Origin: a virus
Lineage: Duplodnaviria > Heunggongvirae > Uroviricota > Caudoviricetes
Virus record (IMG/VR): IMGVR_UViG_3300017987_000047
Reading direction: 5' to 3' (one strand)
Length of the DNA stretch: 64,000 bases
In this document: positions 2,834 through 63,993 of the stretch, piece by piece
Numbering within the stretch: position 1 is the first letter of the stretch
Layout of the letters: the number at the start of each line of letters is the position of its first letter
The notes under the pieces: model-generated
Database searches by the model: none
What the model saw: the letters and a program-made list of their open reading frames with translations, nothing else
Told to the model about the DNA's origin: nothing
Translations under genes and position numbers: made by a program

Positions 2834-2860
2834 TGTAATAATCCTTTAATATTAAGATTG
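2834..2860 (+). promoter_or_regulatory. Class-B upstream motif (GTAATAATC..TTAAT..ATTG)
   Basis: Near-identical to 11851 and 63042; each copy precedes an SD and a short ORF. Confidence 0.6.
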
Positions 2861-2886
2861 TACAATAATTAAGGAGTTTTCTAAAA

Positions 2887-2940
2887 ATGTTTACATCTCA
2901 ATACAAACCAACTCCATTGTGGCACGCTTCCCAAGGATAA
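2887..2940 (+). CDS. Putative leader peptide MFTSQYKPTPLWHASQG (17 aa)
   Basis: AAGGAG SD, ATG 2887, TAA 2938-2940; contains a Trp codon and lies upstream of tRNA-Trp. Confidence 0.55.
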   Translation: MFTSQYKPTPLWHASQG

Positions 2941-2994
2941 CTCTATATTTCCTTTTCAAAAAATTTTCGTTTTGATTCCCTAGGAGATTGATTC

Positions 2995-3312
2995 ATGAAG
3001 AAGGAAGACCGCGAGAGAAAGACTATAACTGAAACTATCGTAACACCAGAATGGGGGGAAGACTTCTTTGGGGTAGCATCCGTAGTCGAAAAGGTAAAGG
3101 GTAAGTACGATTCAATTAAAATTGAAGATGATGGGTATGGCGAATACTCTGAATTAATAATCAGAGGGTATCGTAAAGAAAACGACGAAGAATATAAGAC
3201 AAGGATTGACAAAATTAAAGAAAAAGAAAAGGCAAAGCGTGAGAGGAAGAGGGCTGCTGAGATTGCTCAGCTAAAGGAATTAGCAAAGAAATACCCAAAA
3301 GAGCTTGGTTAA
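2995..3312 (+). CDS. Hypothetical protein
   Basis: AGGAG SD, 105 aa. Confidence 0.75.
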   Translation: MKKEDRERKTITETIVTPEWGEDFFGVASVVEKVKGKYDSIKIEDDGYGEYSELIIRGYRKENDEEYKTRIDKIKEKEKAKRERKRAAEIAQLKELAKKYPKELG

Positions 3313-3328
3313 TTTTAAAAGGAAAAAT

Positions 3329-3613
3329 ATGAACTTCTTCGATTACACAAACCGGGGACCGCTTCCATGGGGCATTGTTCGCACAAACCGCATTACTTTG
3401 CGAGTAGCTGACGGGTGCGTAGAATACACTCGGCAGTATCATGGTAAGAAAGGCTTATCCTCGGGGATATCACACACATTTGAGCCGTCAGCAAGCGCAG
3501 ATGAGATTGCTAAAGGTATTCACTGGGGTTGTTGTGGGTGGTCCGCTGGAGGACATGAAATCTATACACTGAGGGATAAGGTAACAGAGTTTTTGAGCAG
3601 AGAAGGTCTGTGA
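3329..3613 (+). CDS. Hypothetical protein
   Basis: AAGGA SD before ATG 3329. Confidence 0.65.
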   Translation: MNFFDYTNRGPLPWGIVRTNRITLRVADGCVEYTRQYHGKKGLSSGISHTFEPSASADEIAKGIHWGCCGWSAGGHEIYTLRDKVTEFLSREGL

Positions 3614-3656
3614 CGTAGACGCTAGAATAAACTGCGACGCTAATTTATTAGTAATT

Positions 3657-3730
3657 AGGGCACTGGCTCAATTTGGCAGAGCAGCTGATTCCAAATCAGC
3701 AGGTTGGGGGTTCGAGTCCCTCGTGCCCTG
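3657..3730 (+). tRNA. tRNA-Trp(CCA)
   Basis: AGGGCAC/GTGCCCT acceptor, GCTGA-TTCCAAA-TCAGC anticodon arm. Confidence 0.95.
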
Positions 3731-3744
3731 TTTAGGAGGTAACG

Positions 3745-4737
3745 ATGAAAATTGAAATCGTTCGAAAATTCGAATTGGATGCTAATTTATTAATCAAGGC
3801 AGTTCAAAAGATAGAAAACCGGGAAATTCATCTTTTGGAATATTGGCTTAACCCCCATCTCGTAGACTTCAACATTGATTTCAATAAAGTCAGCTCAGCT
3901 TTCGCGCCCATATTTTACCGCGTTAATGGTGGGTTATGTCGCTCGGCTCAATTTATTGTAGAGACCGCTGACATAGACGTAGATAGAATACGAGAACAAC
4001 ACCTTGGTTGGTTGGGGTCCCTTAAGAAAAAAGTTTCTTTTCATCAATTTCTTACCTCCGATGACCAAGAGTATCGCCAACTAGCAAAGTTTACACGAAC
4101 AAACGACCCAATTAGAGTTACGCCACCCAGAAGAGAATTCTATAATTTAATCGAGAAGCGAAAAAAAGCAAAAGAGATTTTTGGGGAAGACGTTAAGTTA
4201 TCTCTATATTCTTGGTGTTCCGAGACGCCGGGGGAACGGGCTAGTTTTAGATGGAAAAATATGAATTTTTCTTTTGAATGCGTTTCAATCCCTAAAGCAG
4301 CAACTGCGGAAGAATTCGAAACACAGCTAGTCGGCTATAAAAAGAAACTTGCTCCCTTTCTGCTTACCCCACCACCTCCTAATATCTCTGTATACTTCGT
4401 TTTTCATAAAGATTATTCCCGCTTTTTTTATAACGCAAACGGGAGTAGAATACTTGCTGTTTTAGACCAGCTACAGCCAGAAATGTTTGAGGACAACTCT
4501 GATTTTATAGAAGATCTATTACCATGCTATAGATATTCCATCAAAATTTATAATTTCATTAAAGGCTGGATCTCTAAAAAGCACTTTGAGGAGTTTTATC
4601 TAGGTTTCTCAGTTTTTAGCATCTCTGCTCTTAAAGATAGAATTGATTATGAGATCGGCAAAACTTGCTATTCCCAAAATTTTAACAACTTCAAAAAAAC
4701 ACTTAGAAGAAAATTTCCCAAGGGTGAGAAATGTTAA
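3745..4737 (+). CDS. LT-box protein (internal motif)
   Basis: AGGAGG SD; FLTSDDQEYRQLAK. Confidence 0.8.
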   Translation: MKIEIVRKFELDANLLIKAVQKIENREIHLLEYWLNPHLVDFNIDFNKVSSAFAPIFYRVNGGLCRSAQFIVETADIDVDRIREQHLGWLGSLKKKVSFHQFLTSDDQEYRQLAKFTRTNDPIRVTPPRREFYNLIEKRKKAKEIFGEDVKLSLYSWCSETPGERASFRWKNMNFSFECVSIPKAATAEEFETQLVGYKKKLAPFLLTPPPPNISVYFVFHKDYSRFFYNANGSRILAVLDQLQPEMFEDNSDFIEDLLPCYRYSIKIYNFIKGWISKKHFEEFYLGFSVFSISALKDRIDYEIGKTCYSQNFNNFKKTLRRKFPKGEKC

Positions 4738-5231
4738 AACGGTTTAAACTTGGTCGGGTTATGCAAATTACCCATAGAATTCCGAGCCTTCCCGAAGAAA
4801 CTTTTTCTGTTAATTCCCAGGATGGGGCATGGATAAATGCAACTAAAAAAGGAACTTCGGACACCTGGGTAAGCACTGTAAAAGACCTTTACAAATACCA
4901 CGCTCCGCGTCCTCCTGTAACTAGTGAGGCAATGAAAACTTTTCATGGAATTTTAGTTTCTTTTGATTCCCATATAGGGAAAAAGGTTTCCCTGCATTTA
5001 GTTCAGCCAGAGAAAAAAGGCGGACACATTAATTTTAAACATATTGAGGGAAAATTTGAAATAATAACAAGTCAAGAGATTTCTGTTTTTGAAATGCTTG
5101 GGAACCTTCGTCTCCGCCATTATTACGAGTTTGGAAAATCTCCTGAGCTGCTTACGAATAAGAATCTGGCTATCCGATTGTATGCCAAATTTATCCGCAA
5201 CGAGAGAAAAAGGATCAAAAACTTGTTATGA
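4731..5231 (+). CDS. LT-box protein
   Basis: LLTNKNLAIRLYAK near the C-terminus. Confidence 0.8.
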   Translation: MLKRFKLGRVMQITHRIPSLPEETFSVNSQDGAWINATKKGTSDTWVSTVKDLYKYHAPRPPVTSEAMKTFHGILVSFDSHIGKKVSLHLVQPEKKGGHINFKHIEGKFEIITSQEISVFEMLGNLRLRHYYEFGKSPELLTNKNLAIRLYAKFIRNERKRIKNLL

Positions 5232-5644
5232 ATAAAAACTTTCAAAAACTTGCGAAGAAAATGGAAGCCCTCCCAGGCATCTTTTTTGTTTCTTGTATAG
5301 ACACAGACGACCTAAAATTAATTCTTTTTAGGGTTAACGACCCACGAAGTCTTTTCTTTTTAACAAGAATTTGTGACAAGCGTTATTGGAAATATGGAGA
5401 GAAATGGTCAATCTCTTTATCTGTGGGAGATAGTAGGGAAGCACAGGCTCTCCCAATCTTCTATCATTTACAACCTACAAAAGTTCGCGAGACCTTTGAT
5501 TTAGAGGTACTTTCATTGCTAGAGAACATGCATTGGCATTTAACGCATAAAGCTTTTATTGAAAATTTTGAGTTAGAAGACTTCGTATTGGAGGCTTTTC
5601 GGGCCCGAATATATGATGACTTTAAAACTATCGTTAAACAATAG
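5228..5644 (+). CDS. Hypothetical protein
   Basis: ATGA overlap with the upstream gene. Confidence 0.75.
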   Translation: MNKNFQKLAKKMEALPGIFFVSCIDTDDLKLILFRVNDPRSLFFLTRICDKRYWKYGEKWSISLSVGDSREAQALPIFYHLQPTKVRETFDLEVLSLLENMHWHLTHKAFIENFELEDFVLEAFRARIYDDFKTIVKQ

Positions 5645-5657
5645 GTTTTCCTCATAT
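5628..5657 (+). promoter_or_regulatory. Class-A promoter motif
   Basis: CTATCGTT-N17-CATAT. Confidence 0.55.
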
Positions 5658-5709
5658 TTTAATATAAGGTTCCTCTTCGGGATAATATCCCCTTATAAGG
5701 AGTATAACT

Positions 5710-5979
5710 ATGAATTGTGAACGATGTGGCACCAAAATAGATTTAAGTTTCCGGGATGACCCACCTTACCTCTGTTGGCGTTGTGTTAAACTTTTCAACG
5801 AAGATGGGTGGCCTTCTAATTATAGTTATAATAGGATAGGAGGCTCTGATGGCTGTTACGCAAAGAAGCCTGAAGAGACTAGTTCTTCCTCAAGTTCTAG
5901 GATGTGCAGTAAATGTGGGGATTACCCCGTAAGTGGAAGCAGTTCTTATTGCACTTATTGTGATGAGGGGCAATTGTAG
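5710..5979 (+). CDS. Small zinc-ribbon protein
   Basis: Four CxxC pairs; AAGGAG SD. Confidence 0.7.
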   Translation: MNCERCGTKIDLSFRDDPPYLCWRCVKLFNEDGWPSNYSYNRIGGSDGCYAKKPEETSSSSSSRMCSKCGDYPVSGSSSYCTYCDEGQL

Positions 5980-5985
5980 GAGACC

Positions 5986-6369
5986 ATGGAAGAAAAATAT
6001 CTTAAGGTAGTGAAAAAAGAATTGGTTGGGAGAACTTTTGGGTTCTTTGAATTTGGGGATACCCTGAATTTAGTAATTCATTTCACAAAAAACCTAAGTT
6101 ATCTCTTATGCCCATGTACGGGCAACAAGATACCTAGAATACCCGATTCTTCGGGAAAACGGAAAACAGAAGACCCATTACCCCAGATCGGTATTATCCG
6201 GCAATCCTTCAAACATGGAGTTACGGGTTTGCTTGCTCGACGGATCATTTGGTCTTTTGAAAAGGAAGAAGAGGATATTAAAGAGTTATCCTTAGAAGAA
6301 CTACTAACAGCCAAGGAAAATGGTTTTAGAAAAGCGGCAAAGGCACTTCTTAAAGAGTTGCAAGGATGA
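5986..6369 (+). CDS. LT-box protein
   Basis: LLTAKENGFRKAAK at the C-terminus. Confidence 0.8.
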   Translation: MEEKYLKVVKKELVGRTFGFFEFGDTLNLVIHFTKNLSYLLCPCTGNKIPRIPDSSGKRKTEDPLPQIGIIRQSFKHGVTGLLARRIIWSFEKEEEDIKELSLEELLTAKENGFRKAAKALLKELQG

Positions 6370-6803
6370 AGAAGCTTGTGCAAACTAGGGTTGCTGCTGT
6401 TCTTAAGGTGGAAGAGCCTGGCTTCTCTCCTAGGAGAGAGAGGTCGATAGCTTTTCTCGGCTGGCAAGATTATCCAAAAAATGAAAAAGAGTTAATAGCA
6501 ATCGCTCTAACTTTTTTCGAAAGATTTCCTAACTCTACAGTTTATACGGATCTGATATTTGAGGTTCATAGCTTAACCACATTAACCTTTTATGCAAAAG
6601 CTAGCTCGTATACTAAACACTCTTGCGCAAGACAACCCAAACCAGATTTGCCCATTGCTAACTATGAAAAATATAAGGTTAAGGTTTACGATGTCCATGA
6701 AGACCTTTTGGAAGTCCCAAAACTAGAAGCGTTTATTACCTCAAAACTCCCGCTCCTTAGAGCCACAGCGAAAAAGAAAATCAATGGGAATTCGAGTACA
6801 TAA
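6366..6803 (+). CDS. LT-box protein
   Basis: FITSKLPLLRATAK at the C-terminus. Confidence 0.8.
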   Translation: MKKLVQTRVAAVLKVEEPGFSPRRERSIAFLGWQDYPKNEKELIAIALTFFERFPNSTVYTDLIFEVHSLTTLTFYAKASSYTKHSCARQPKPDLPIANYEKYKVKVYDVHEDLLEVPKLEAFITSKLPLLRATAKKKINGNSST

Positions 6804-7482
6804 AGTTCTTGGGTACGGCCTGAGTGACATTAAAGTCGAGAAATATAGTTTGGTGGACCCTCGCTTTACCTTACAAGGGGGAGCTTGGGATTATTTCTTA
6901 GAACTTTTAGCCTATGACATAAAACCAGAAGAATATATTTATTGGTTGCGTCACGATTTACTAAAACGGAATGAAGAGGAACTCGCAAGTGTCGGTATCC
7001 ACGATACTATAATGCTAAGATTATTGCTGGGGGAAAGCAAAAGGCGTAAGAAGTTTAAAAACTCTCTTAAGCTCGAAGAATGTTTAACCCACCAAAGCGA
7101 GTTCGGTTTTCCAAACGTAATGCTTTTTACTCCGCCCGATTATTTAGAAGAATGGGTCCAATGCGACTCCACCATGGACTGGGTTTCGGAAACATACGAG
7201 CATTCCCAAGAAAATAGAATTCTAGCTCTTCCAGGAATTTATCCTTACAATTCTTTACAAAATAAGGACGGCATAGTACCAAATAGTATAGAGGCGCAGG
7301 TTTTGTATGATCAAAGGCAAGCTGCCTTTGAAAAAGGGAAACTCCACGAAATAAAAGATACCTGGCCTGAAATCCCTCCCTCCGTTATAGCCTACATCCT
7401 ATTCCTTGGCATCTTTAGGGAAGATGTTTTTAGTGAAGTGGTCACCCAGCTTCGTCCTTATTTCTACGTTTATTGGTCTTAA
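6784..7482 (+). CDS. Hypothetical protein
   Basis: 232-aa ORF within the gene run. Confidence 0.75.
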   Translation: MGIRVHKVLGYGLSDIKVEKYSLVDPRFTLQGGAWDYFLELLAYDIKPEEYIYWLRHDLLKRNEEELASVGIHDTIMLRLLLGESKRRKKFKNSLKLEECLTHQSEFGFPNVMLFTPPDYLEEWVQCDSTMDWVSETYEHSQENRILALPGIYPYNSLQNKDGIVPNSIEAQVLYDQRQAAFEKGKLHEIKDTWPEIPPSVIAYILFLGIFREDVFSEVVTQLRPYFYVYWS

Positions 7483-7483
7483 A

Positions 7484-7912
7484 ATGAAATCCCCAAACGA
7501 GGATTTTTGGGTTTGGCGAACAAGCCCAAGTTTTGGTAACGGGACTTTTCATTTTCATAGCCTACCGACTCCAGAAGAAATGCTACGCGCATTTTTACTC
7601 CACGTAGAAGAGGAAAGTAATAGGAAAAATTATATCCTAACAAATATAAGAATGACGGCCACGCACTATTTTTATTCGCTGATTACTCAGCAGGCTGATG
7701 CAGATTTCTCTTATTATTTGCGATTGGGCGAATTCCTAAATTATGATCGAATCTTCCCTGATGAGTTTAATGCTCTTCCCCCTAAAGGAACCCTTCTCAC
7801 CTCTTCCCAAAACCTAGTTCGTAAAATTGGCAAAGCTTTGATCCAAGGGGATAAACAAAAACTTGTACGGCTAGGGGTTCAAGAGGAGTTTTTCAAATGG
7901 CTAAAAGAATAG
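7484..7912 (+). CDS. LT-box protein
   Basis: Start moved to ATG 7484; LLTSSQNLVRKIGK. Confidence 0.75.
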   Translation: MKSPNEDFWVWRTSPSFGNGTFHFHSLPTPEEMLRAFLLHVEEESNRKNYILTNIRMTATHYFYSLITQQADADFSYYLRLGEFLNYDRIFPDEFNALPPKGTLLTSSQNLVRKIGKALIQGDKQKLVRLGVQEEFFKWLKE

Positions 7913-8319
7913 AAAACTTTGAAGAGACCACTTTTAAAGGAATTAGCAAATACCTAACTCATAGCGATCCCCGGGTTAGGAAAATAGTAAAAGATACATT
8001 AGAGATCCCGATGACTTCTGTCGGGGTAACCCAAAAACGATTAGATTATCTTCAAAAGCACTACAAAAACGCTGGCAAAGCCTATGAGGAAATCACAGAA
8101 AACCCTTCCTCGAGAAAAGAACTCACAGAAGCTTTTAATTACCTTATGGCTGTTGGGAATCTTCTTACGGATTTTCTAATATTCGAAAAAATTCGTCTTG
8201 ATCAAGTTTCTATGGAATTTAAGGAACAAAGGTTAAAGGACGAAAAGAAGTCTAATTATTTGATCCTATTAATTACTACAATCGGTATCCTGAGCATCTT
8301 TCTACTGGAGTTACTATAA
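7897..8319 (+). CDS. LT-box protein with N-terminal motif and C-terminal TM helix
   Basis: YLTHSDPRVRKIVK; hydrophobic tail YLILLITTIGILSIFLL. Confidence 0.8.
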   Translation: MAKRIENFEETTFKGISKYLTHSDPRVRKIVKDTLEIPMTSVGVTQKRLDYLQKHYKNAGKAYEEITENPSSRKELTEAFNYLMAVGNLLTDFLIFEKIRLDQVSMEFKEQRLKDEKKSNYLILLITTIGILSIFLLELL

Positions 8320-8615
8320 TGTCAGAAAAGGTCAATAAAGAACAAATTAACAAAGCTTTTGATGCTGTTAAGACAAAACTAGAAAAGGCGATGGGAAAGT
8401 ACGGTAATAAGCCTTTTTCTAGTGTCTATTCGGCAATGGGGGTGCTCCTGGAAGAGTGGAATGAAGTACAACAGGCAATCCACGAGCATAAGGAGATTCA
8501 TCCTGAGGTCCTTTCAGAGTTTGAAGATCTATGTGTTGTTGCTCTTTGGTCTGTCGCATCTTTCCAATCGAAATTAGGTGAGAAGCAACATAGAATTGGG
8601 GACGTACTACCTTAA
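8319..8615 (+). CDS. MazG-like all-alpha NTP pyrophosphohydrolase (putative)
   Basis: Acidic pattern GVLLEEWNEV...EFEDLCVVAL. Confidence 0.5.
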   Translation: MSEKVNKEQINKAFDAVKTKLEKAMGKYGNKPFSSVYSAMGVLLEEWNEVQQAIHEHKEIHPEVLSEFEDLCVVALWSVASFQSKLGEKQHRIGDVLP

Positions 8616-11836: not shown

Positions 11837-11850
11837 CAAAAAAGAAAAAT

Positions 11851-11877
11851 TGTAATAATCTATTAATCTAGAATTGG
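11851..11877 (+). promoter_or_regulatory. Class-B upstream motif
   Basis: TGTAATAATCTATTAATCTAGAATTGG. Confidence 0.6.
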
Positions 11878-11899
11878 TAATACATTAATGGAGGATAAA

Positions 11900-11986
11900 A
11901 TGTACGTCAGTCAGAATATCACAACCTACCCGACGACAGCCCGACCCGCAGGGGCAACCTCCGCGACACCAGCCCCACGGGGCTAA
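11900..11986 (+). CDS. Putative leader peptide MYVSQNITTYPTTARPAGATSATPAPRG (28 aa, Thr/Pro/Ala-rich)
   Basis: GGAGG SD 5 nt before ATG; 6 Thr, 4 Pro, 5 Ala. Confidence 0.65.
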   Translation: MYVSQNITTYPTTARPAGATSATPAPRG

Positions 11987-14674: not shown

Positions 14675-14938
14675 GTGATGACAATACTATATCATAATAA
14701 CGGAGAAGTCTATGGGGAAGTAGAGGAAGTTGATGGGAAAACTCTTGTTACTGTCTATACAAATAAACGTCTATTGCGTGGGGATGTCGCATTTCGTTGG
14801 GTAAACGAGAAAGGACTTCCCTTAGAGATAATACGAGAAACCCTAAATAAATATGATGCTGATGTAGAACTGTTAACCTATACTCTCTCCGGAATACAAC
14901 ATATCTTAAAATCAAAAGGTTTTAAGTTTGAGCAGTAA
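14675..14938 (+). CDS. Small protein resembling an alanyl-tRNA synthetase helical segment
   Basis: LRGDVAFRWVNEKGLPLEII resembles AlaRS 'SGxxAFxLYDTYGFPLDLT'. Confidence 0.4.
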   Translation: MMTILYHNNGEVYGEVEEVDGKTLVTVYTNKRLLRGDVAFRWVNEKGLPLEIIRETLNKYDADVELLTYTLSGIQHILKSKGFKFEQ

Positions 14939-15035
14939 GTTTTGACTGTAAGTTTGAAGCAGTAAGTTTTGTGAGAGGTTTGACTGTAAGTTTGAAACAG
15001 TAAGTTTTGAAGCAGTAAGTTTTGTGAGACAATAC

Positions 15036-15107
15036 CGGGGTGTAGTCGCGGGGAGCGACGTCTGCTTCGGAAGCAGAAGGCGGCAGGTTCGACCCCTGCC
15101 ACCCCGA
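15036..15107 (+). tRNA. tRNA-Pro(CGG)
   Basis: CGGGGTG/CACCCCG, TCTGC-TTCGGAA-GCAGA, A73. Confidence 0.9.
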
Positions 15108-15145
15108 CTTGAGATAGTAAGTTTGAAACAGTAAGTTTTGTGAGA

Positions 15146-15220
15146 GGGCTCGCATGTTCCAAGGGTAGGCGATCTGGACTTGCAATCCGGATGAGGTGAG
15201 TTCGATTCTCACCGGGTCCA
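15146..15220 (+). tRNA. tRNA-Ala(TGC)
   Basis: GGGCTCG/CGGGTCC with G3:U70, CTGGA-CTTGCAA-TCCGG; atypical D arm. Confidence 0.85.
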
Positions 15221-15237
15221 TTTGAGTAAGTTTGAAG

Positions 15238-15342
15238 CAGAGCGTGGAGGAGTCTGGATGTCCTCGTCCGCCAAGGACCGTTATATAACGGACGCCACCC
15301 CTTGGACGCGGAAGAACGTGGGTTCAAATCCCACCGCTCTGA
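15238..15342 (+). tRNA. tRNA-Pro with a 29-nt insertion/intron in the anticodon loop
   Basis: CAGAGCG/CGCTCTG, C1-G72, A73; anticodon stem TCCGC/GCGGA encloses 36 nt instead of 7. Confidence 0.7.
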
Positions 15343-15353
15343 TGCAAATAAAT

Positions 15354-15683
15354 GCCAACGTAGCTCAATTAGGCAGAGCAGCTCACTTGTTTGAATACGA
15401 GCGCCTATAATGAAAGTTGTAGGATGAACCGGGTGAATTCAGGGAAGGCTAAGTCTTTTAGGATATGTTAACCCTGAGCCAAGCCAGAAGTACACTTCTG
15501 GAAGGTGCAGAGACTACTGGAGAGGTTCAGCCCTCTTAATAACCAGCTAGAGCGCCCGGCACCCTAACGAGGAAGACGAGGGTGGTGAGATAGTCCAACA
15601 CTTATTGGAAACAATAAGGAAAAAGAGAACAGTTCTCTTTTGTGGTAATGAGCAGGTTGTCAGTTCGATTCTGACCGTTGGCT
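15354..15683 (+). tRNA. tRNA-Thr(TGT), split by a group I intron (exons 15354-15388, 15645-15683)
   Basis: GCCAACG/CGTTGGC acceptor; spliced arm GCTCA-CTTGTAA-TGAGC. Confidence 0.9.
15389..15644 (+). ncRNA. Group I self-splicing intron (IC3-like, no ORF, 256 nt)
   Basis: P1 CTTGT/ACGAG with U.G at the splice site; core AATTCAGGGAA, AACCCTGAGCCAAG, GGTGCAGAGACTA, GATAGTCC; terminal G. Confidence 0.9.
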
Positions 15684-15727
15684 CTAACAAGTGCCTTTTA
15701 AGGGCCGATCCTTGGGGCCTAGCGAAG

Positions 15728-15802
15728 CGAAGCGTGGGCTAATTGGGAAGCCGCTTGCTTTGGGAGCAAGACATCATGGGAGTTCAAGTCTCTCCGCCTC
15801 GA
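15728..15802 (+). tRNA. tRNA-Pro(TGG)
   Basis: CGAAGCG/CGCCTCG (one mismatch), CTTGC-TTTGGGA-GCAAG. Confidence 0.85.
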
Positions 15803-15829: not shown

Positions 15830-16864
15830 TTAATTATTTTCACATTGTGGGAAATGGTGTTCTCTGTGGCAGGTCGAGCACAATAAAATACATTTTTCTG
15901 CTTCTTTTAAAATTTTCTTCCACGGCCGGCATAACCCTGTTCGGGACAATGAAAAATCTTTTCCTTTTTCATGATGAAATTCTAAGCCTGTAAGATTTTT
16001 TTTATACCCACAAATAGAACATTCCCCTCCCTTCAAACCGATTAACTTTTTCCTTTTAAGAAGGTCTCTTCGTTTTGTTCGGCAGTGGCTATTTTGCTTA
16101 CTTGAAATTTTTAAGTTCCTTAGTAAGCTTTTTAATTTATCTTCATCAAAATCTTTATTATGAATTTCGTGATGGCAATTCGCACAAACTAAAATACATT
16201 TCTTTGCTTCCTCTAGAAGGGTATCCCAGTGCTTTTCAAAGGCAGCGGTATTTAAGTTAAAAGTTTTTTCTTTAACATGATGAAAATCTAGAGCTGCTAA
16301 ATTTTTAGCGTAACCACAAATAGAGCATTTTCCTCCATTAAGTTCTACTAATTTCTTTTTCCTTCTAAGAAGAGAAGCATTTCGTTTTTCTTTAGTCTTT
16401 GCATCCCGGGGAATATTTCTACTTTTCTTTTTACATCTATAGCATGTCCTTGCGTGAAGCTTTTTTCTATCTTCCGGTAGGGGATCGCCACAAACAACAC
16501 AAGTTTCCCAACTACAGTTGCCACAGACTTTAATCGCTGCTTTTTTATGCCCCTTAATTATAAACTCTTCCCCACACCGGGAACAAAGCTTTTTATATTC
16601 TTTAGGCTTCTTTCTTACGTTATTATAAGAAGCTGAACACGACTGGGAGCAAAACTTATCACTTGTTTTAGAGGTTATAATCTCTCCACAATTCAAACAA
16701 TGTTTTATATTTTTAGGATTAAGTTTACATGCTGGTTCGTGTTTAACTAGATTCGGTTTTGTAAACTCCTTACTACAAAACTTACATTTATACCTTTTGG
16801 AATTTATTTTCTTTGCATTTTCTCTACAAATTTCAATTCTTTTTTCTATTCCTGTCTTCTCCAC
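15830..16864 (-). CDS. Zinc-ribbon protein with two HNH-type endonuclease domains (free-standing homing endonuclease-like)
   Basis: Two CSICGY..L[DE]FHH..CILxCxxCHxExH repeats; GGAGG SD before GTG 16864. Confidence 0.8.
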   Translation of the reverse strand: MEKTGIEKRIEICRENAKKINSKRYKCKFCSKEFTKPNLVKHEPACKLNPKNIKHCLNCGEIITSKTSDKFCSQSCSASYNNVRKKPKEYKKLCSRCGEEFIIKGHKKAAIKVCGNCSWETCVVCGDPLPEDRKKLHARTCYRCKKKSRNIPRDAKTKEKRNASLLRRKKKLVELNGGKCSICGYAKNLAALDFHHVKEKTFNLNTAAFEKHWDTLLEEAKKCILVCANCHHEIHNKDFDEDKLKSLLRNLKISSKQNSHCRTKRRDLLKRKKLIGLKGGECSICGYKKNLTGLEFHHEKGKDFSLSRTGLCRPWKKILKEAEKCILLCSTCHREHHFPQCENN

Positions 16865-16966
16865 AGACTTACCTCCAATACTTTTTAGTATAATATACAG
16901 GTTATTTTGCGAAAAAATTGTCACATGGGGACTCATTACCCGCATTTAGAGATGGAGAGTTAAGAG
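16857..16966. repeat. Diverged ~110-nt direct repeat, copy 1
   Basis: Aligns with 21931-22039 (TTCTCCACA..CTTACCTCC..GTATAATATACA..). Confidence 0.75.
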
Positions 16967-17733: not shown

Positions 17734-17763
17734 CTTTCGTTATTCAAAATAAAATCGTTATAT
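17734..17763 (+). promoter_or_regulatory. Class-A promoter motif
   Basis: CTTTCGTT-N17-TATAT. Confidence 0.65.
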
Positions 17764-31473: not shown

Positions 31474-31503
31474 CTTTCGTTAATCAAAGGTATTTCAAAA
31501 TAT
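31474..31503 (+). promoter_or_regulatory. Class-A promoter motif
   Basis: CTTTCGTT-N17-AATAT. Confidence 0.6.
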
Positions 31504-43350: not shown

Positions 43351-43380
43351 CTTTCGTTAGTCAAAAGGGAAACATTATAT
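43351..43380 (+). promoter_or_regulatory. Class-A promoter motif
   Basis: CTTTCGTT-N17-TATAT. Confidence 0.65.
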
Positions 43381-43405
43381 AAAGGAGGACCCAAAAAGGG
43401 ATATC

Positions 43406-43725
43406 TGGCATTAAAATAGCCAATCATTAAGTTATCATAGAAGATTATTTATCTTCGGCTTATTGATTGTTCAATCGAGCCTTAAAAACTTCCATAATTG
43501 AAAGAAAACCTTATTTCAGATCGATTTTTTTATGATTTTACTTTTTCATTATTGGTTTACAATCAAAGACCCTTAAAGCCTCTATTAAGGTGTAATTCCC
43601 GATTTAACTCTTCCTTCCATTGGTTTGTTATAATCTTCACCGGCTTATTGGGATGCAAGGTTGAAAATCTAAAACCTGATTCAATATTACAAAGGAATTT
43701 ACAAAGTTTAATATGTAAAATACCT
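43406..43725. ncRNA. Conserved non-coding element, copy 2 (candidate structured RNA)
   Basis: Colinear homology to 472-770; lies directly downstream of a class-A promoter motif. Confidence 0.5.
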
Positions 43726-48944: not shown

Positions 48945-50279
48945 GTGAACTACTCCCACGTAAACGTAGGAGCTTCTTTCCTAATTAATAACCGTTGGAC
49001 TTACCACCTTAGGTGGGTCCTTTGGTAATAGAAAAGCATGATTTTGGGCAGTCCCTGCCCTACGTAATAATTGTCCTTTTTTCTTAATAACTAAAGCTGC
49101 GTTAATGTCTCTATCATGATGAGTTTTGCAACTTAAACAAGTCCATTCCCTATCTTTGAGCTTCAAATCCTTATTCACCCAATCACAGGCATGACATGTT
49201 TTTGAAGTGTTTCTTGGGGGGACGAGAACTAGTTCTCGTCCATACCAGGAGGCTTTATATTCAATCATAGATTTCAGCATAGAAATAGCAGTGTTAGATG
49301 CAGCAAATGCTAGGTTTCTATTCTTAATCATAAATTGGACTGTTAAATCTTCTAGATAAATTGCTTGGTTTTCGTCAATTATCTTTTTTGAGATTTTATC
49401 TAATTTATCTTTTCTAACATTTTTAACTTTTTCATGACATCTCGCAACTTTTAGTTTTTGTTTTTTATAGTTGTTTGATCCTCTCTTCTTCTTTGAAAGT
49501 TTTCTTTGATTTTTTCTCAATTTCTTATGATATTTATCTAAATTCTGATGCTTATCATGCTTCTCACCATTATCTTCAATCAAAGCATTTTTGATTCCAA
49601 AATCTAGTCCGACTTCATTCTTAGTTCTTTTTAACTTCTTCTGCTTTTGATCATGAAAACAAAGAGAAGCAAAATATTTATTAGTTGAAGTCTTTTTGAT
49701 AGTGCAAAAAGAAATCTTTCCATTAATTTCTCTATGCCTTTTGATTCTAATTCCTTCAAGGAATGCAGGCATTTTAAGGAGATTTTCTTCAATTTTGATT
49801 CCTTGAGGGATTCTAAAAGACTTTTCAGAGAAATTTCTCTTTTTGAATTTAGGAGGTCCTGCTTTTAATTTTGGACTGAAGAAGTTTTTATATGCTTGGT
49901 GAAGGTCTCTAAGAGCAGCTTGACAGGCTTGAGAATGAATGGTTTTCATCCATTCTAAGGACTTCCTTAATTGGGTTAAAGTTGCTTGGTCTTCCTTATA
50001 AAAAGAAAATTTCAATCCATTTTTATGATGCTCCTTTTTGAGGGCTAAAAAATGATTATAGATAAATCTACGAGCACCAAAAAACTGATCAAATTTCTTG
50101 ATTTGATCTTTTGATGGATAGATTCTAAACTTGTATAATTTAGTGATGGTTGATCTTTTAGACTTTCTAACCATGGTATAAAATTATACATGTTAGAGGA
50201 TTATAACGTAAGGCAAAATTGCTTTTTTGACACAATTCATCCTCGCGCGTGAACGCGGAGGACTTTTTGCGTAGGCACA
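48945..50279 (-). mobile_element. IS200/IS605-family (IS1341-type, TnpB-only) element
   Basis: Subterminal hairpins at ~48952-48976 and ~50240-50263; no tnpA; ends approximate. Confidence 0.75.
48981..50174 (-). CDS. tnpB: RNA-guided endonuclease TnpB
   Basis: YKFRIYP HTH; RuvC GLDFG / LEDL / DRDINAA; zinc ribbon CHAC..CLSC. Confidence 0.95.
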   Translation of the reverse strand: MVRKSKRSTITKLYKFRIYPSKDQIKKFDQFFGARRFIYNHFLALKKEHHKNGLKFSFYKEDQATLTQLRKSLEWMKTIHSQACQAALRDLHQAYKNFFSPKLKAGPPKFKKRNFSEKSFRIPQGIKIEENLLKMPAFLEGIRIKRHREINGKISFCTIKKTSTNKYFASLCFHDQKQKKLKRTKNEVGLDFGIKNALIEDNGEKHDKHQNLDKYHKKLRKNQRKLSKKKRGSNNYKKQKLKVARCHEKVKNVRKDKLDKISKKIIDENQAIYLEDLTVQFMIKNRNLAFAASNTAISMLKSMIEYKASWYGRELVLVPPRNTSKTCHACDWVNKDLKLKDREWTCLSCKTHHDRDINAALVIKKKGQLLRRAGTAQNHAFLLPKDPPKVVSPTVIN

Positions 50280-57181: not shown

Positions 57182-57183
57182 AA

Positions 57184-58272: not shown

Positions 58273-59209
58273 AATTATCGTAATCGTTGGGTACCCCGCC
58301 GCCGGAAAATCCTCTCTCTGCAAGGAGTTTGAGGATCAGGGTTATATGCGGGTTAACCGTGATACCTTGGGCGGAACTCTAAAAGACCTTGCTGAATACG
58401 CAAAGAAGCTTATTAGCGAAGGGAAAAAGAAACTTGTTCTCGACAACACTTATGGCACGATTGAAAGCCGTAAGGTTGTAATTGAGCTTGGGAAAGAAAC
58501 AAACATCCCTGTTCGTTGTGTTTGGCTTGATACCAGTATTGAAGATTCCCAATTCAATGCCTGCATGAGGATGATGCAACGGTTTGGGAAGGTTCTAGCC
58601 CCAGACGAGATTAAGAAAAAGAAAGACCCTAACACTTTCCCGGCGGCAGTACAATTCAAGTATCGGAAGGCTTTTGAAAAACCAAAGAAAGAGGAAGGGT
58701 TTACGTCTATAGAGAAAAGGAAGTTTGAGCGAGTCCTAGATCCGGAGTATTGTAACTCTGCTTTGATTCTTGACTACGATGGGTGTCTCAGAGAAACAAA
58801 AAGCGATAAAAAATACCCCACCAGCCCAGATGATATCCGAATTCTTCCGGGAAGGGGGGAGAAGCTTAAGAAGCTACTTAAAGATGATCCCTCGCTATTA
58901 TTGTTGGGGGCTTCAAATCAAAGTGGAATCGCAAAGGGTGTTTTATCGGAAGAAGACGCCCGAGCTTGCTTCGATTTCACGAATAAGGAGCTCGGGGTTG
59001 ATATCGAATATCGTTTCTGCCCCCATAAGGTCCCACCAATTTCTTGCTTCTGCCGGAAACCGATGCCTGGGATTGGCGTTTATTTTGTCGAAAAGTACAA
59101 ACTGAATCCTGAAAAGGTAACAATGGTTGGGGATATGAAATCAGATGAGACTTTCGCTAAACGGTGTGGGTTTAAGTTTATTCATTCTGACGATTTTTTC
59201 AAGGTATAA
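58265..59209 (+). CDS. Polynucleotide kinase / HAD-IIIA phosphatase fusion (PNKP-like)
   Basis: GYPAAGKS, VLDNT kinase domain; LDYDG, SNQSG, RKP.PG, VGD..SD phosphatase domain. Confidence 0.8.
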   Translation: MSEIIVIVGYPAAGKSSLCKEFEDQGYMRVNRDTLGGTLKDLAEYAKKLISEGKKKLVLDNTYGTIESRKVVIELGKETNIPVRCVWLDTSIEDSQFNACMRMMQRFGKVLAPDEIKKKKDPNTFPAAVQFKYRKAFEKPKKEEGFTSIEKRKFERVLDPEYCNSALILDYDGCLRETKSDKKYPTSPDDIRILPGRGEKLKKLLKDDPSLLLLGASNQSGIAKGVLSEEDARACFDFTNKELGVDIEYRFCPHKVPPISCFCRKPMPGIGVYFVEKYKLNPEKVTMVGDMKSDETFAKRCGFKFIHSDDFFKV

Positions 59210-59253
59210 AATTCTGTAGATTGCCGTAGGCCTAAGCAACAGAAAGGCAACTG

Positions 59254-60333
59254 ATGGACAGCAAGGAAATAAAACCAGGGTTCTACTGGTGTGAATGGAA
59301 TCATGGGCCTATCCAAAAAGTTGTAGGATACTACGTCGAAGATAGGTTATATTTCTCAGCGTGGGGAGGTCATCCGGGTGGCTGGTGGGCTGAGTATATC
59401 GCAAAACGAGCGAAACGGCTTATTCCAATCCCGGATAAACCGCCGAAGCAAGGGGTATCGGCGAAAGAGGACACAATGTCTCATACCCCTAAGTGGTTAG
59501 TTGTTTATTCGGGTAGTAAATTCGCACAGGATGCTGCTAATAAAATTTGTGGCTTGCTACAAAAACGCAGGATCGATTTTGAAAAATGTTCTGTTTTCGA
59601 AATTTCAAAGAAAATACCGCTCGAAATTCAACAAACTTTCAACCTAGCTATTGTCTGTGGTGGAGACGGTACAATTCTTGGAACTCAACGGCAGCTTAAA
59701 GTCGAAAATCTCCCCCTAGTTGGAGTCAACCTGGGCCGATTGGGCTTTCTTGCTGAATTTGAATTTTCAAAATTCGAAGAAAAGATTGACCAGTTAGCCG
59801 AAAAATTCGAATTACGCAACCGGTTAAGGTTAAGAACAACTCTTTCTCGGAATAATAAAGTTATCTTCGAAGAAATTGCATTAAACGAAGCAGCGATAAC
59901 CCAATCAGGGATTTCCCGTATGGTTGGGGTAAACGTTTTCATAAACAATCAATTTTGTGGAAATATTCAAGGAGATGGGTTATTGATCGCAACCCCATCT
60001 GGGTCTACTGCCTACTCCTTAGCAGCAGGAGGATCTCTAGCACACCCGGAATTAGAGACAATTCTATTAACGCCCATTTGTTCCCATTCCTTAACAGTAC
60101 GTCCTATTATCTTGCCGCCGGATCGAAATATAAAAGTGAAACTGATGGATGACAGAAAAGCCGCAACCGTTGTTACGGTTGATGGGCAGGTTTCAGTCGA
60201 GATGCAAGTGGGCGACGAGTTACTTGTTTCTAGAGCTCCAGATTTATTGACTGTTAAATCCACAACACATAACTTCTTCGATGCCTTGCAAACAAAACTA
60301 AATTGGTCTGGGCATGCAAACCTCCCACAATAA
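59254..60333 (+). CDS. nadK: NAD+ kinase with a 74-aa N-terminal extension (internal start likely at 59476)
   Basis: GGDGT, GVNLGRLGFL, LNE, GDGLLIATPSGSTAYSLAAGG. Confidence 0.9.
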   Translation: MDSKEIKPGFYWCEWNHGPIQKVVGYYVEDRLYFSAWGGHPGGWWAEYIAKRAKRLIPIPDKPPKQGVSAKEDTMSHTPKWLVVYSGSKFAQDAANKICGLLQKRRIDFEKCSVFEISKKIPLEIQQTFNLAIVCGGDGTILGTQRQLKVENLPLVGVNLGRLGFLAEFEFSKFEEKIDQLAEKFELRNRLRLRTTLSRNNKVIFEEIALNEAAITQSGISRMVGVNVFINNQFCGNIQGDGLLIATPSGSTAYSLAAGGSLAHPELETILLTPICSHSLTVRPIILPPDRNIKVKLMDDRKAATVVTVDGQVSVEMQVGDELLVSRAPDLLTVKSTTHNFFDALQTKLNWSGHANLPQ

Positions 60334-60395
60334 TCTTTTAATCTTTAGGCCAAAAATTAGTATAAAGGAGGAAGAACTCTATTAGAAAGGCCAGA

Positions 60396-60965
60396 ATGAT
60401 TGAGAGACAAACAAAGGCAGGGATTATTCAAACTTCCTCCGGATTGAAATTTGATATTTGCAATCCAAATCCCGAGCTAATAAATATTGAAGATATTGCG
60501 GATGCGCTTTCAAAACTTTGCCGGTTTGGAGGCCATACGACATCGTTCTATAGTGTAGCGCAACATTGTTGCCTTGTTGCCTTACAACTCCCCCTTGACC
60601 TAGCCATGTGGGGTTTATTGCACGACGCATCGGAGGCTTACTTAGTTGACATTCCATCCCCGATTAAAAAGTTACTTCCGACTTATATTGAGTTTGAAGA
60701 AGGGTTACACCAAGCAGTTGCGAAGAAGTTTGACCTTTCTTGGCCTATGCCAGAGGCTGTGAAATGGGCCGATGAAATTGCGCTGGCAACGGAAGCCCGA
60801 GACCTTATGGGAAGCGTTGGGAAAAAACGATGGGGAAGCCTTAAAGGCATTCCAATGCTTCAAGATAAAGTTGTCCCCGTTACGTCAGATGTTGCGTATC
60901 GGGATTTTCTCAAACACTATGAGATTTTAAGTAATTTCATAGAACACCAAAAGGAAGCTTCTTAG
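60396..60965 (+). CDS. HD-domain 5'-deoxynucleotidase-like (YfdR/YfbR type)
   Basis: CRFGGH..FYSVAQH..LLHDASEAY..DIPSP.K. Confidence 0.85.
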   Translation: MIERQTKAGIIQTSSGLKFDICNPNPELINIEDIADALSKLCRFGGHTTSFYSVAQHCCLVALQLPLDLAMWGLLHDASEAYLVDIPSPIKKLLPTYIEFEEGLHQAVAKKFDLSWPMPEAVKWADEIALATEARDLMGSVGKKRWGSLKGIPMLQDKVVPVTSDVAYRDFLKHYEILSNFIEHQKEAS

Positions 60966-61336
60966 GTGGGCAGGTAACCGCGGCAGCAATGTCGAGGAAA
61001 GTCCGGACTCCCCAGAGCAAGAAAGTCGCTAACAGCGACCGGGCGCGAGCCTAGGGAAAGTGCCACAGAAAATAAACCGCCGATGGCCCTCTTTGGGCAC
61101 AGGTGACGATGAAAAGGTGGGGTAAGAGCCCACCGCCGTTTCTGGCGACAGAGCGGGCATGGTAAACCCTTTCTGGAGCAAGCTCAAACAGACTGGAGGT
61201 GTTGCTCGCACCATTTGACAGTCGGGTAGAGTGCAGGAGGCAAAAGCCCCTACTCAGGTCGCGCCAGGACCCAAAAAATAGCCTGAGTAAGATGAATGGT
61301 TACCCAACGACAGAATCCGGCTTATTCCTACCTAAG
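60961..61336 (+). ncRNA. rnpB: RNase P RNA, bacterial type A
   Basis: GAGGAAAGTCCGGACTC, AGTGCCACAGAAA, GGTAAACCC..GAGCAAG, AGATGAATG, ACAGAATCCGGCTTA; P1 CTTAGGTGGG/CCTACCTAAG. Confidence 0.95.
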
Positions 61337-61372
61337 CAAGTTTTCCCTTCCCTCAGCCAACGGAAAAAATTA

Positions 61373-61636
61373 ATGGCTACTCCAAAAGCACACCTTGTCC
61401 CTGGAAACAAAGTTGTTGTTACTAATAAAGGAAAAGGCATTAACACTCCGGTAATATTAACGGCTAAACCCGGGTCCGCTTTAAGTGGGTTTTGCGAGCC
61501 CCCTATTGGGACAATTCTTAAGATTCTCGGCCCTCCTAGAAGGACTGAAGGAATTAACACCATTAAGGTAGAGTGTGGAGAACAGATTTTTGAAGCCTAC
61601 TACTGTACGATAAGGTATAGTACGGAACCTGTCTAA
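61373..61636 (+). CDS. Hypothetical protein
   Basis: Start moved downstream of rnpB. Confidence 0.6.
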   Translation: MATPKAHLVPGNKVVVTNKGKGINTPVILTAKPGSALSGFCEPPIGTILKILGPPRRTEGINTIKVECGEQIFEAYYCTIRYSTEPV

Positions 61637-61667
61637 CCATTTCTAACCTCGAGCAAGGAGAAAGCCG

Positions 61668-62225
61668 ATGATCGTAAATGTTATCAACCCAGAGGCCTAT
61701 AATCCCTTCACCCGAACCCAAGAAGAACTTCAAATGGGGTTTAGAGAAGACCAAGAATCTGCAAGGGAGGTTTTTGAAGAATGGAATAAGGATATTGACT
61801 TTCCAGATTTTTCCCTACCCCCCAAACAATGGGTTGCACAAATCCCCGATAAATTTAAGTTCAAGGTTCCGAAAGGCACAAAAATTCTATTTGCCACCTA
61901 CGGGGAAGAGGATGAAACTGAAGGGGATTTTAAAGGAACTGCGCTAGAAAAAGATAGCAGCGGCCTTGTTGGTTTAAATGGGGACTGGTCCACTCTTCCA
62001 GAGTTTGAGCTTATTGTAGATGACGACGAAACTTTTGTTATTAACGTTGATCTTGCTCGTTATGGTGACGATATTTTCACAAATGACCAGGTAGTTTGGA
62101 TGGTTGATAAGGCAGGTAATCTTTATCAGCTAGGGGGTGAACCGGCAGGATGTACAAAAAAAGACCCCGATTCTATTAATCCTTCTCTTTTTAATCTTTA
62201 TGATTATGTTGTAAAACACCAATAA
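61668..62225 (+). CDS. Hypothetical acidic protein
   Basis: AAGGAG SD. Confidence 0.75.
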   Translation: MIVNVINPEAYNPFTRTQEELQMGFREDQESAREVFEEWNKDIDFPDFSLPPKQWVAQIPDKFKFKVPKGTKILFATYGEEDETEGDFKGTALEKDSSGLVGLNGDWSTLPEFELIVDDDETFVINVDLARYGDDIFTNDQVVWMVDKAGNLYQLGGEPAGCTKKDPDSINPSLFNLYDYVVKHQ

Positions 62226-62226
62226 T

Positions 62227-62256
62227 CTATCGTTTAACTTAAGATCTTCCTTATAT
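62227..62256 (+). promoter_or_regulatory. Class-A promoter motif
   Basis: CTATCGTT-N17-TATAT. Confidence 0.6.
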
Positions 62257-62335
62257 AATTGCTATAGAGGATTATACAAAGCAGTTAACCCAATTCCGGG
62301 ATTTACGTTTTAGAAAAGGAAACCGGGGATTAAAG

Positions 62336-63046
62336 ATGGATAAAACATCACTAGGCGATCGAATGAAACGTTTCGAGGGGATTACTAATCCAGTTGTTGT
62401 CCCCCGAATGCCCATTATTTTGCGGGTTGATGGAAAAGCTTTCCACAACTGGGTAAAGAAAATTAATGCCGAAAAGCCCTTTGACCAGCGGCTACTTGAC
62501 GCAATGGGCGATACAGCAATTGAGCTTTGCCAAGAGATTCAGGGGGCTGTTTTTGCTTATCAGCAATCCGACGAAATCTCAATCTTGATTCACCCTTACC
62601 AGAATCTTGAAAGCCAGCCGTGGTTTGGCGGTAAATTACAAAAGATGGTTTCAATCTCTGCCGCAACTGCGAGTTCCTTTATGTCCCTGCGGTTTGGCAT
62701 TAAAACTATCTTCGATTCAAGGGTTTTTGTTCTCCCAGAAAATGAGGTTATTAACTATTTCATCTGGCGCCAACAGGATGCCTCCCGAAACTCTGTCCAG
62801 ATGGTGGCAAGAAGCAAGTTTTCACACAAGGCTTGCAACAATAAGTCCTGTAATGAGTTGCAAGAGATGCTTTGGCAAGAACATAACCTTAACTGGAACG
62901 ATCTGCCTCCCGTTCAGAAGCGTGGGCTTGGTATTCTCCGGAGAGACGGGAAATGGGATAAGGATTTTGATATCCCAATCTTTACTCAGGATAGGGATTA
63001 CATTAAAAACTTATTTTTCCAGAAAACTGAGGAAGTAAAAGAGTAA
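62336..63046 (+). CDS. thg1: tRNA(His) guanylyltransferase / Thg1-like protein
   Basis: RVDGKAFH, QSDEIS, FDSRV, YFIWRQQD..RNS, KRG. Confidence 0.95.
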   Translation: MDKTSLGDRMKRFEGITNPVVVPRMPIILRVDGKAFHNWVKKINAEKPFDQRLLDAMGDTAIELCQEIQGAVFAYQQSDEISILIHPYQNLESQPWFGGKLQKMVSISAATASSFMSLRFGIKTIFDSRVFVLPENEVINYFIWRQQDASRNSVQMVARSKFSHKACNNKSCNELQEMLWQEHNLNWNDLPPVQKRGLGILRRDGKWDKDFDIPIFTQDRDYIKNLFFQKTEEVKE

Positions 63047-63069
63047 TAATCTATTAATATAAGGATTGG
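63042..63069 (+). promoter_or_regulatory. Class-B upstream motif
   Basis: GTAATAATCTATTAATATAAGGATTGG. Confidence 0.6.
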
Positions 63070-63108
63070 CCTTCAAACGCTGATCTATTTCATAGGAGGT
63101 CAAAGGCA

Positions 63109-63207
63109 ATGGAACAAAACTATATCCACATCCGCCACTCACATCTGAGGCACTCCTATCTTCATCGCCCTGGTACGGGCCTACGACTTAAGCGAAAACA
63201 TAGCTAA
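63109..63207 (+). CDS. Putative leader peptide MEQNYIHIRHSHLRHSYLHRPGTGLRLKRKHS (32 aa, His-rich)
   Basis: AGGAGGT SD 8 nt before ATG; 6 His, 5 Arg, 4 Leu, 2 Lys, 2 Gly. Confidence 0.65.
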   Translation: MEQNYIHIRHSHLRHSYLHRPGTGLRLKRKHS

Positions 63208-63300
63208 GACTTCACATTAAAAATTCGTCTGGGATGGCAGCTACCACAATAGGATATCTTTCTAGTGGTAGGGGAAAATTGGGGTTTAATCGTGTATTTT

Positions 63301-63373
63301 GGGTCCATAGCTCAGCAGGCAGAGCAGCGGCCTTTTAAGCCGATGGTCGGGGGTTCGATTCCCTCTGGACCCA
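63301..63373 (+). tRNA. tRNA-Lys(TTT)
   Basis: GGGTCCA/TGGACCC, loop CTTTTAA. Confidence 0.95.
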
Positions 63374-63379
63374 TAGAAA

Positions 63380-63450
63380 GCGATGCTAGCATAATGGGAA
63401 TGCACCGGATTGCCGGTCCGGGTATACGAGTTCGATTCTCGTGCGTCGCT
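63380..63450 (+). tRNA. tRNA-Gly(GCC)
   Basis: GCGATGC/GCGTCGC, CCGGA-TTGCCGG-TCCGG, U73. Confidence 0.9.
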
Positions 63451-63454
63451 TAAA

Positions 63455-63530
63455 AGTCCTGTGGGCAAGTTGGCAAAGCCGCCTGAATGAGGTTCAGGAG
63501 ATTTTGAGGGTTCGACCCCCTCCAGGACTA
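63455..63530 (+). tRNA. tRNA-Leu(GAG), short variable region
   Basis: AGTCCTG/CAGGACT, CCTGA-ATGAGGT-TCAGG, A73. Confidence 0.85.
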
Positions 63531-63573
63531 TGTGACGTTGTTCGGTTTCTCTACTTTTATGGAGAAGATTGAA

Positions 63574-63825
63574 ATGCGGAATATCAAGGTATTCAAGTTT
63601 AGCGAGTTGCCAAAGGCCTATGCGGCAACGGTTCTAGAAGATGCCCCATCAATGAATGCCGATGGAAGGTATTGGTTCAAGTTTGTAGGTAATGTGGTTG
63701 AGGATGCGGCAGTTGACCCAAAAGGATTTGACCCTGAATATGTTGAGATTTATCGGGAAGCAGATGTATTCTTCTATGAAAGTGGGTGCGAAAACGGGGA
63801 ATCAATCCTAATTGAACAAGATTAA
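63574..63825 (+). CDS. Hypothetical protein inside the tRNA cluster
   Basis: GGAG SD before ATG 63574. Confidence 0.65.
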   Translation: MRNIKVFKFSELPKAYAATVLEDAPSMNADGRYWFKFVGNVVEDAAVDPKGFDPEYVEIYREADVFFYESGCENGESILIEQD

Positions 63826-63830
63826 CTGCT

Positions 63831-63903
63831 GGGAGTGTAGCTCAATTGGAAGAGCTCCAACCTCTTAAGTTGGATGTTTGGGGTTCAAGTCCCCACACTC
63901 CCA
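63831..63903 (+). tRNA. tRNA-Lys(CTT)
   Basis: GGGAGTG/CACTCCC, CCAAC-CTCTTAA-GTTGG. Confidence 0.95.
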
Positions 63904-63908
63904 TATAT

Positions 63909-63993
63909 GGTGGGTATGGCGGAATTGGTATACGCGCAAGACTGTGGATCTTGTGGGCAATAGCCCTTGTGGGTTCGAACCCCACTATCCACC
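63909..63993 (+). tRNA. tRNA-His(GTG) with genomic G-1:C73 and a long variable arm
   Basis: G-GTGGGTA/TATCCAC-C, CAAGA-CTGTGGA-TCTTG, V arm GGGC-AATA-GCCC. Confidence 0.9.

Follow-up and report, generated by a model that had tools for sequence, protein, structure and literature searches.

The closest described counterparts of the DNA elements considered here are the attenuators of enterobacteria, such as trpL, hisL, thrL, leuL and pheL, or pheM of the pheST operon, where a short open reading frame (ORF) with a strong ribosome-binding site (RBS) lies right behind the promoter and is enriched in codons related to the operon. Comparable elements are found in IMG/VR record IMGVR_UViG_3300017987_000047 (Caudoviricetes), of which a stretch of 64,000 nucleotides, termed the window, was analysed. 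Three copies of a promoter-like motif are each followed by a short leader ORF with a strong RBS, and two of these ORFs are enriched in codons read by the transfer RNAs (tRNAs) encoded farther along their own gene runs. Each of the two relates to more than one amino acid, as do thrL and ilvL. Unlike in the enterobacterial attenuators, the genes downstream specify tRNAs and unknown proteins rather than biosynthetic enzymes, the relevant codons are dispersed, no terminator/antiterminator pair was recognised, and in one case the tRNA genes are 3 kb off. The codon match in two of the three leaders suggests, short of proof, that the phage monitors the supply of its own tRNAs.

Two further types of regulatory leader bear on this arrangement. 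In the tnaC-tnaAB (PMC8429421) and toiL-topAI (PMC12121999) systems, premature termination by Rho is averted while a ribosome is held on a short ORF (reviewed in PMC12360218). The short ORFs tnaC and toiL resemble the phage leaders, whose translation is predicted, in that they lie in or next to a C-rich, G-poor region and lack an intrinsic terminator. Yet, the tnaC and toiL systems sense free tryptophan or antibiotics, whereas the phage leaders are proposed to sense the supply of several tRNAs at once. T-box riboswitches, in turn, sense tRNA status and control translation-related genes, but they operate by direct pairing between RNA and tRNA without any translation, and the phage leaders match no T-box covariance model.

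A motive for such control is provided by work on phage tRNA genes, which are described as countering host defences that cleave or deplete tRNAs (PMC10264068, PMC11555353). The portions of these two papers drawn upon here concern the tRNAs themselves, and they supply a reason for a phage to adjust its tRNA output. A full-text literature search retrieved no paper on the control of tRNA genes by leader peptides, in phages or elsewhere. How phages control the output of their own tRNAs has, to our knowledge, hardly been described.

The motif preceding the leaders, termed class B, is the 16-mer GTAATAATCYWTTAAT, of which the window holds exactly three exact copies, at positions 2835-2850, 11852-11867 and 63043-63058 of the + strand. 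The tetranucleotide ATTG follows 5-6 nt past each core (2857-2860, 11873-11876 and 63065-63068). Copies 1 and 2, which with their flanks extend over 2832-2860 and 11849-11876, additionally share a preceding AAAAGAAAA(T/A)TT, and copy 3 (63043-63068) overlaps the stop codon of a gene for a tRNA-His guanylyltransferase of the Thg1 family (62336-63046, + strand). A degenerate copy with two mismatches (60327-60342, + strand) is followed by AAGGAGG and by no short ORF; it precedes a gene for a protein of 189 amino acids and the RNase P RNA gene. Taken together, these four matches compare with 0.47 expected in the window, and none of 100 shuffled sequences reached four. The original prediction, made from the letters of this DNA alone, had named three intergenic sites with a common motif and ATTG; these sites were recovered, with coordinates one base to the right.

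Behind each exact copy a short ORF starts with an ATG located 32-50 nt after the motif and 5-10 nt past an AAGGAG or GGAGG, as had been anticipated. Leader c (2887-2940) comprises 17 codons and is preceded by AAGGAG at 2871-2876, leader a (11900-11986) comprises 28 codons behind GGAGG at 11890-11894, and leader b (63109-63207) comprises 32 codons behind GGAGG at 63095-63099; all three are on the + strand. An RBS of this strength is found at 10 of the 87 long genes and at 3.3% of all ATGs in the window. Since these sites are stronger than those of most genes of the phage, all three leader ORFs are probably translated. A second class of promoter-like sequences (class A; CG-N5-CAA-N11-TATA, or TTTCGTTAnTCAA-N11-TATA) is present on the + strand at 17738, 27861 and 43355, with a variant near 31477, and these copies open straight into long genes. 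In this phage, therefore, short leader ORFs belong to the class-B copies and are not a property of promoters in general. Class-A copies often run at once into a G-rich, AGGAGG-like run, and no start codon comes after the runs at 43380 and 60363.

The three leaders differ in composition. In leader a, 15 of the 27 residues are Thr, Ala or Pro, which are its three commonest residues, and all 15 fall within the last 21 codons (including three ACA, two CCA, one CCG and two GCA). Leader b contains six His, five Arg, four Leu, two Lys and two Gly, with two CTT codons and one each of AAA, AAG, GGT and GGC, and leader c contains a single Trp codon (TGG). Those of these counts that the original prediction had given are all correct on recount. 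Leaders a and c start alike with Met, an aromatic residue, any residue, Ser and Gln, and both end in Gly, while the shared Ser is encoded by different codon families; on the sequence, this likeness fits paralogous cassettes whose ORFs were kept open.

The tRNA genes predicted to follow the leaders were all found with the anticodons first assigned to them, Thr(TGT) once its intron is removed. Array A (15036-15802, + strand) consists, according to ARAGORN, of tRNA-Pro(CGG) at 15036-15108, tRNA-Ala(TGC) at 15146-15220, tRNA-Pro(TGG) at 15238-15342 (with the intron option), tRNA-Thr(TGT) at 15354-15684 and a last tRNA-Pro(TGG) at 15728-15802. The tRNA-Thr gene is split by a group I intron (Rfam; 15389-15644), which sits in the anticodon between positions 34 and 35 and whose removal yields a canonical tRNA of 75 nt. 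The first tRNA-Pro(TGG) has a 29-nt insert in the anticodon loop that ARAGORN reads as an intron and that is too short for a group I intron. Repeats of a ~13-nt unit (TAAGTTTGAAGCAG / CAGTAAGTTTTG), both tandem and dispersed, fill the spacers before the first three tRNA genes of array A (14923-15029, 15110-15145 and 15222-15236, + strand); judged by sequence, they could be processing or promoter signals. Array B (63300-63994, + strand) holds tRNA-Lys(TTT), Gly(GCC) and Leu(GAG), an ORF of 88 amino acids, and tRNA-Lys(CTT) and His(GTG), and its tRNA-Lys gene begins 92 nt after the end of leader b. Leader c is followed at ~0.7 kb by tRNA-Trp(CCA) (3656-3731, + strand; ARAGORN), with two small genes between. 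The stretch between leader a and array A is free of terminator-like sites on the + strand and of class-A promoters, and a convergent gene (15830-16945) closes the gene run that contains this array. From this layout, array A may plausibly be co-transcribed from 11852 onward, and the separating terminator that had been named as a check on the original prediction was not found there.

The strength of the codon match was assessed in several ways. Binomial tests of the match against the phage's own coding background gave p = 7e-7 for leader a (15 of 27 codons for Pro, Ala or Thr; background 14%), p = 0.02 for leader b (14 of 31 for Lys, Gly, Leu or His; background 27%) and p = 4e-5 for the His codons of leader b alone (6 of 31; background 2%), as compared to p = 0.22 for the one Trp of leader c (background 1.5%). 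The match is specific for the leader's own array: leader a scores 15 with array A versus 2 with array B, and leader b scores 14 with array B versus 2 with array A. In none of the + strand frames does the window have a second place where at least 15 of 27 codons specify Pro, Ala or Thr, as they do in leader a, and leader b is the sole + strand place with at least six His in 31 codons. With the leader held fixed and the amino acids drawn at random, 1 of 1140 triples does as well for leader a (p = 0.0009), and 78 of 4845 sets of four do as well for leader b (p = 0.016).

Leaders a and b are C-rich and by composition favour Pro, Thr, Ala and His codons; therefore, shuffles that preserve dinucleotides were used. 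Under these shuffles the match of leader a has p = 0.006 for amino acids and 0.011-0.012 for codons, and that of leader b has p = 0.006-0.01 for amino acids and 0.001 for codons. The matching codons number 10 in the frame of leader a versus 3 and 2 in the other two frames, and 12 in the frame of leader b versus 3 and 5. Since the match is far weaker in the other frames, the signal is tied to the frame set by the ATG, and this frame-specificity is the best available argument that ribosomes read the leader ORFs. The claim that leader codons match the tRNAs of their own operons is thus borne out for leaders a and b, and for leader c the match does not exceed chance. Chance is unlikely as the cause of the matches of leaders a and b together, and the main explanation other than chance is a functional link between leader translation and the downstream tRNAs.

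The gene run of array B continues beyond the window. An overlapping record, identical over the 1.1 kb of overlap that was aligned, prolongs the sequence to window coordinate 73046 and reveals five protein genes, tRNA-Leu(TAG) at ~66012, two protein genes, and tRNA-Arg(ACG) and Arg(TCT) at ~67437-67611. Based on the codons of leader b, tRNAs for Arg, Ser, Tyr and Ile had been forecast past position 64000: the two Arg genes are there, those for Ser, Tyr and Ile are absent within 9 kb, and Leu(TAG) had not been foreseen. The adjacent array reads 12 of the 31 codons of leader b, and with the downstream Leu(TAG), Arg(ACG) and Arg(TCT) the number rises to 19 of 31, which none of 20000 shuffles reach, this extension having been made after seeing the data.

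The leaders also stand out by their base composition. Their C content is 0.28-0.39 and their G content 0.13-0.23, compared to 0.18 C and 0.21 G in the window. By excess of C over G, all three are among the highest 0.1-0.6% of 78-nt windows; the DNA behind class-A promoters is average in this respect, and the 60-nt stretch of the window that is most skewed towards C over G (tied first) falls in leader a. Leader c is equally C-rich without a tRNA match, and therefore the C-rich composition may serve a purpose of its own. Rho, a factor absent from some bacterial groups, loads onto RNA that is rich in C, poor in G and weakly folded.

These features can be combined into a putative mechanism. The class-B motif is promoter-like, and behind its three exact copies transcription would produce a short, efficiently translated leader within C-rich, G-poor RNA. 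A ribosome lingering on this leader would hide a Rho loading site or keep transcription and translation coupled. Slow decoding of the matched codons would then let the polymerase run on into the tRNA genes, and fast decoding would free the leader and lead to an early stop of transcription. Such a switch would most likely follow the route of the tna and toi systems, which is favoured by analogy because there is no intrinsic terminator. That stalling would switch on the tRNAs, as the original prediction supposed, we purely infer; the same holds for the direction of the control and for any part played by Rho. Genes of tRNA metabolism surround the loci, namely those for RNase P RNA, Thg1 and a polynucleotide kinase-phosphatase, and count in favour of sensing. 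That leaders a and b report the decoding speed of their matched codons and tune read-through into the operon is, in our judgement, evenly poised between true and false. The wider proposal, that this huge phage controls its own tRNA blocks and the genes co-transcribed with them by translated, codon-matched leaders and a switch without terminator (Rho-type or coupling-dependent), is tentative, and we hold it to be possible rather than probable.

A number of observations weigh against this proposal. The single Trp codon of leader c is not significant with respect to tRNA-Trp (p = 0.29 in shuffles), and the matched codons of leaders a and b are scattered, at most two in a row and without long tandem runs. 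The raw p-values understate the true chance level, because low-complexity peptides with much Pro/Ala/Thr or much His are common and because their codons are favoured in C-rich RNA. Between leader a and array A lie ~3 kb with some eight to nine protein genes of unknown family, closely spaced on the + strand, the next 9 kb past the window lack tRNA genes for Ser, Tyr and Ile, and Arg(CCT) at 989 as well as Leu(TAG), Arg(ACG) and Arg(TCT) past the window lie among protein genes without a leader of their own. At the RNA level, Rfam returned nothing for the leaders at gathering or E-value thresholds, T-box included, the fold energies of the three leaders are ordinary compared to shuffled sequence (z = -0.66, +0.20, +0.80), neither a consensus scan nor a custom hairpin-plus-U search revealed any GC hairpin with U tract at leaders b and c, and a 9-bp hairpin can form that includes the GGAGG of leader b. 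Finally, no close relatives of the phage were present in the collections searched.

The same cassettes might instead drive genes for micro-peptides unrelated to tRNAs, low in complexity and rich in Pro/Thr/Ala or His/Arg, whose likeness to the tRNA sets is coincidental. The start pattern and final Gly shared by leaders a and c, with Ser from different codon families, would be in line with such genes, and so would the missing tRNA match of leader c, the failure to find an RNA switch and the 3 kb between leader a and its tRNAs; moreover, Pro/Ala/Thr-rich linkers are common low-complexity sequence. This account has to accommodate, however, that two independent cassettes each match their own array only, and that the match is rare even for the given leader composition, with the fixed-leader p-values quoted above for a and b. 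Also, the leader peptides have no homologues in the protein collection searched. We consider it rather unlikely that the leaders are micro-peptide genes unrelated to tRNAs. The weight may also be shifted from the peptide to the RNA, if the functional element were an untranslated, C-rich and G-poor 5' leader, to which Rho or some other protein would bind, and the ORFs were by-products of composition. The extreme C excess of all three leaders, including the unmatched leader c, is in line with this, as is the lack of stop codons in every frame of the GC-rich part of leader a, but a strong RBS and an ATG are found at all three leaders, the in-frame match recurs in only 0.1-1% of composition-preserving shuffles, and the other frames score far lower. 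An untranslated element is an unlikely explanation.

Classical attenuators of the trp or his type, with a hidden intrinsic terminator and antiterminator, are very improbable. Leader a does contain short GGGG and CCCC blocks able to pair alternately, and a weak 5-bp GC hairpin (11971-11984, + strand) with a T run 6 nt beyond the stem. The fold z-score of leader a is not significant, though, and the hairpin is unconvincing as an intrinsic terminator: its T run is displaced, and it lies inside the last codons of the ORF, so that a terminating ribosome would melt it. Together with the ordinary fold energies and the missing hairpins of leaders b and c, these scans agree with the view held from the start that no classical terminator/antiterminator pair is to be seen. 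A box shared after the stop codons (AAATT..CGTYT) was examined as a further candidate and discarded, as it is no better than shuffled spacers.

The class-B motif itself is more general. In IMG/VR the exact 16-mer has 109 single matches, and several copies occur in two contigs only (G001 and L040). G001 is a 64.9-kb fragment of another huge phage, estimated to be 14% complete and with a G+C content of 39.5%; it contains no tRNA genes and has no detectable protein similarity to the window phage. Four exact and ~11 near copies of TAATAATCnnTTAAT are found in this fragment, all on the gene strand and 39-99 nt before the RBS/ATG of ordinary genes, while the reversed control pattern has no copy there. 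One of the G001 copies is nearly the same as window copy 2, with one base different over the first 25 nt, and continues into TAGAAT. L040 has three copies of the motif, which stand before a 100-residue gene, a 157-residue gene and a gene truncated by the end of the locus. Since the copies in both contigs stand before genes, the class-B motif behaves as a promoter, or a promoter plus operator, that appears to be common to several phages, and it does not mark tRNA operons specifically. Cases in which motif copies were followed by tRNAs in other loci were rejected as chance matches inside genes, and the extended motif, searched in metagenome contigs, gave unrelated single matches only.

The window is part of the genome of a huge uncultured phage. 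One of its proteins occurs on eight assembled contigs, the longest among the matches listed being 335,479 bp (ENA ERZ27256770, k141_416325), and another record carrying DNA of this phage reaches 384 kb. Nearly all genes of the window are on the + strand, its G+C content is ~40%, and it contains 12 tRNA genes. The phage also encodes a bacterial RNase P RNA of class A at full length (60962-61339, + strand; 243 bits, E = 6e-78), located between the gene for the 189-amino-acid protein and the Thg1 gene, just upstream of array B. The protein genes include those for Thg1, polynucleotide kinase-phosphatase, NAD kinase and TnpB. TnpB (48981-50174), which has an OrfB_IS605 domain and a Cas12f1-like TNB domain, is encoded on the minority (-) strand and has no close homologue among the GTDB species genomes searched; the searches with TnpB and NAD kinase for a host yielded no close bacterial homologues. 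Two intergenic stretches located ~43 kb apart (455-575 and 43385-43505, + strand) are 78% identical over ~100 nt and include TTGTTCAATCGAGCCT-AAAAACTT; one of them comes after a class-A promoter.

The Thg1 gene immediately precedes the His-rich leader b, and its distance to tRNA-His(GTG) is ~0.9 kb; ARAGORN assigns this tRNA a length of 85 nt, which is more than is usual for a tRNA-His. Relatives of this Thg1 protein are at most 62% identical, and most of them have no tRNA array after the Thg1 gene. Two distant Thg1 phages that do have arrays (L129 and L130) have no leader. Two very large phage-like contigs, one of them 619 kb long (L133, NCBI GCA_004196255.1; the other L134), encode a Thg1 that is 59% identical and keep the order of genes from NAD kinase to Thg1, but lack tRNA genes behind it. 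No relatives of the flanking proteins were found in IMG/VR, and the 88-amino-acid ORF inside array B has no homologue.

If the proposal of codon-matched control is true, the phage would possess feedback control of its tRNA supply for conditions under which the host starves or cleaves tRNAs. With a leader that responds to decoding speed and thereby adjusts the matching tRNA genes, the principle of attenuation would be extended from amino-acid supply to tRNA supply. The present case is a form without intrinsic terminator and, if real, would indicate that more than one termination mechanism can serve this principle. Such leaders would also explain why the tRNA genes of giant phages are grouped by amino acid.

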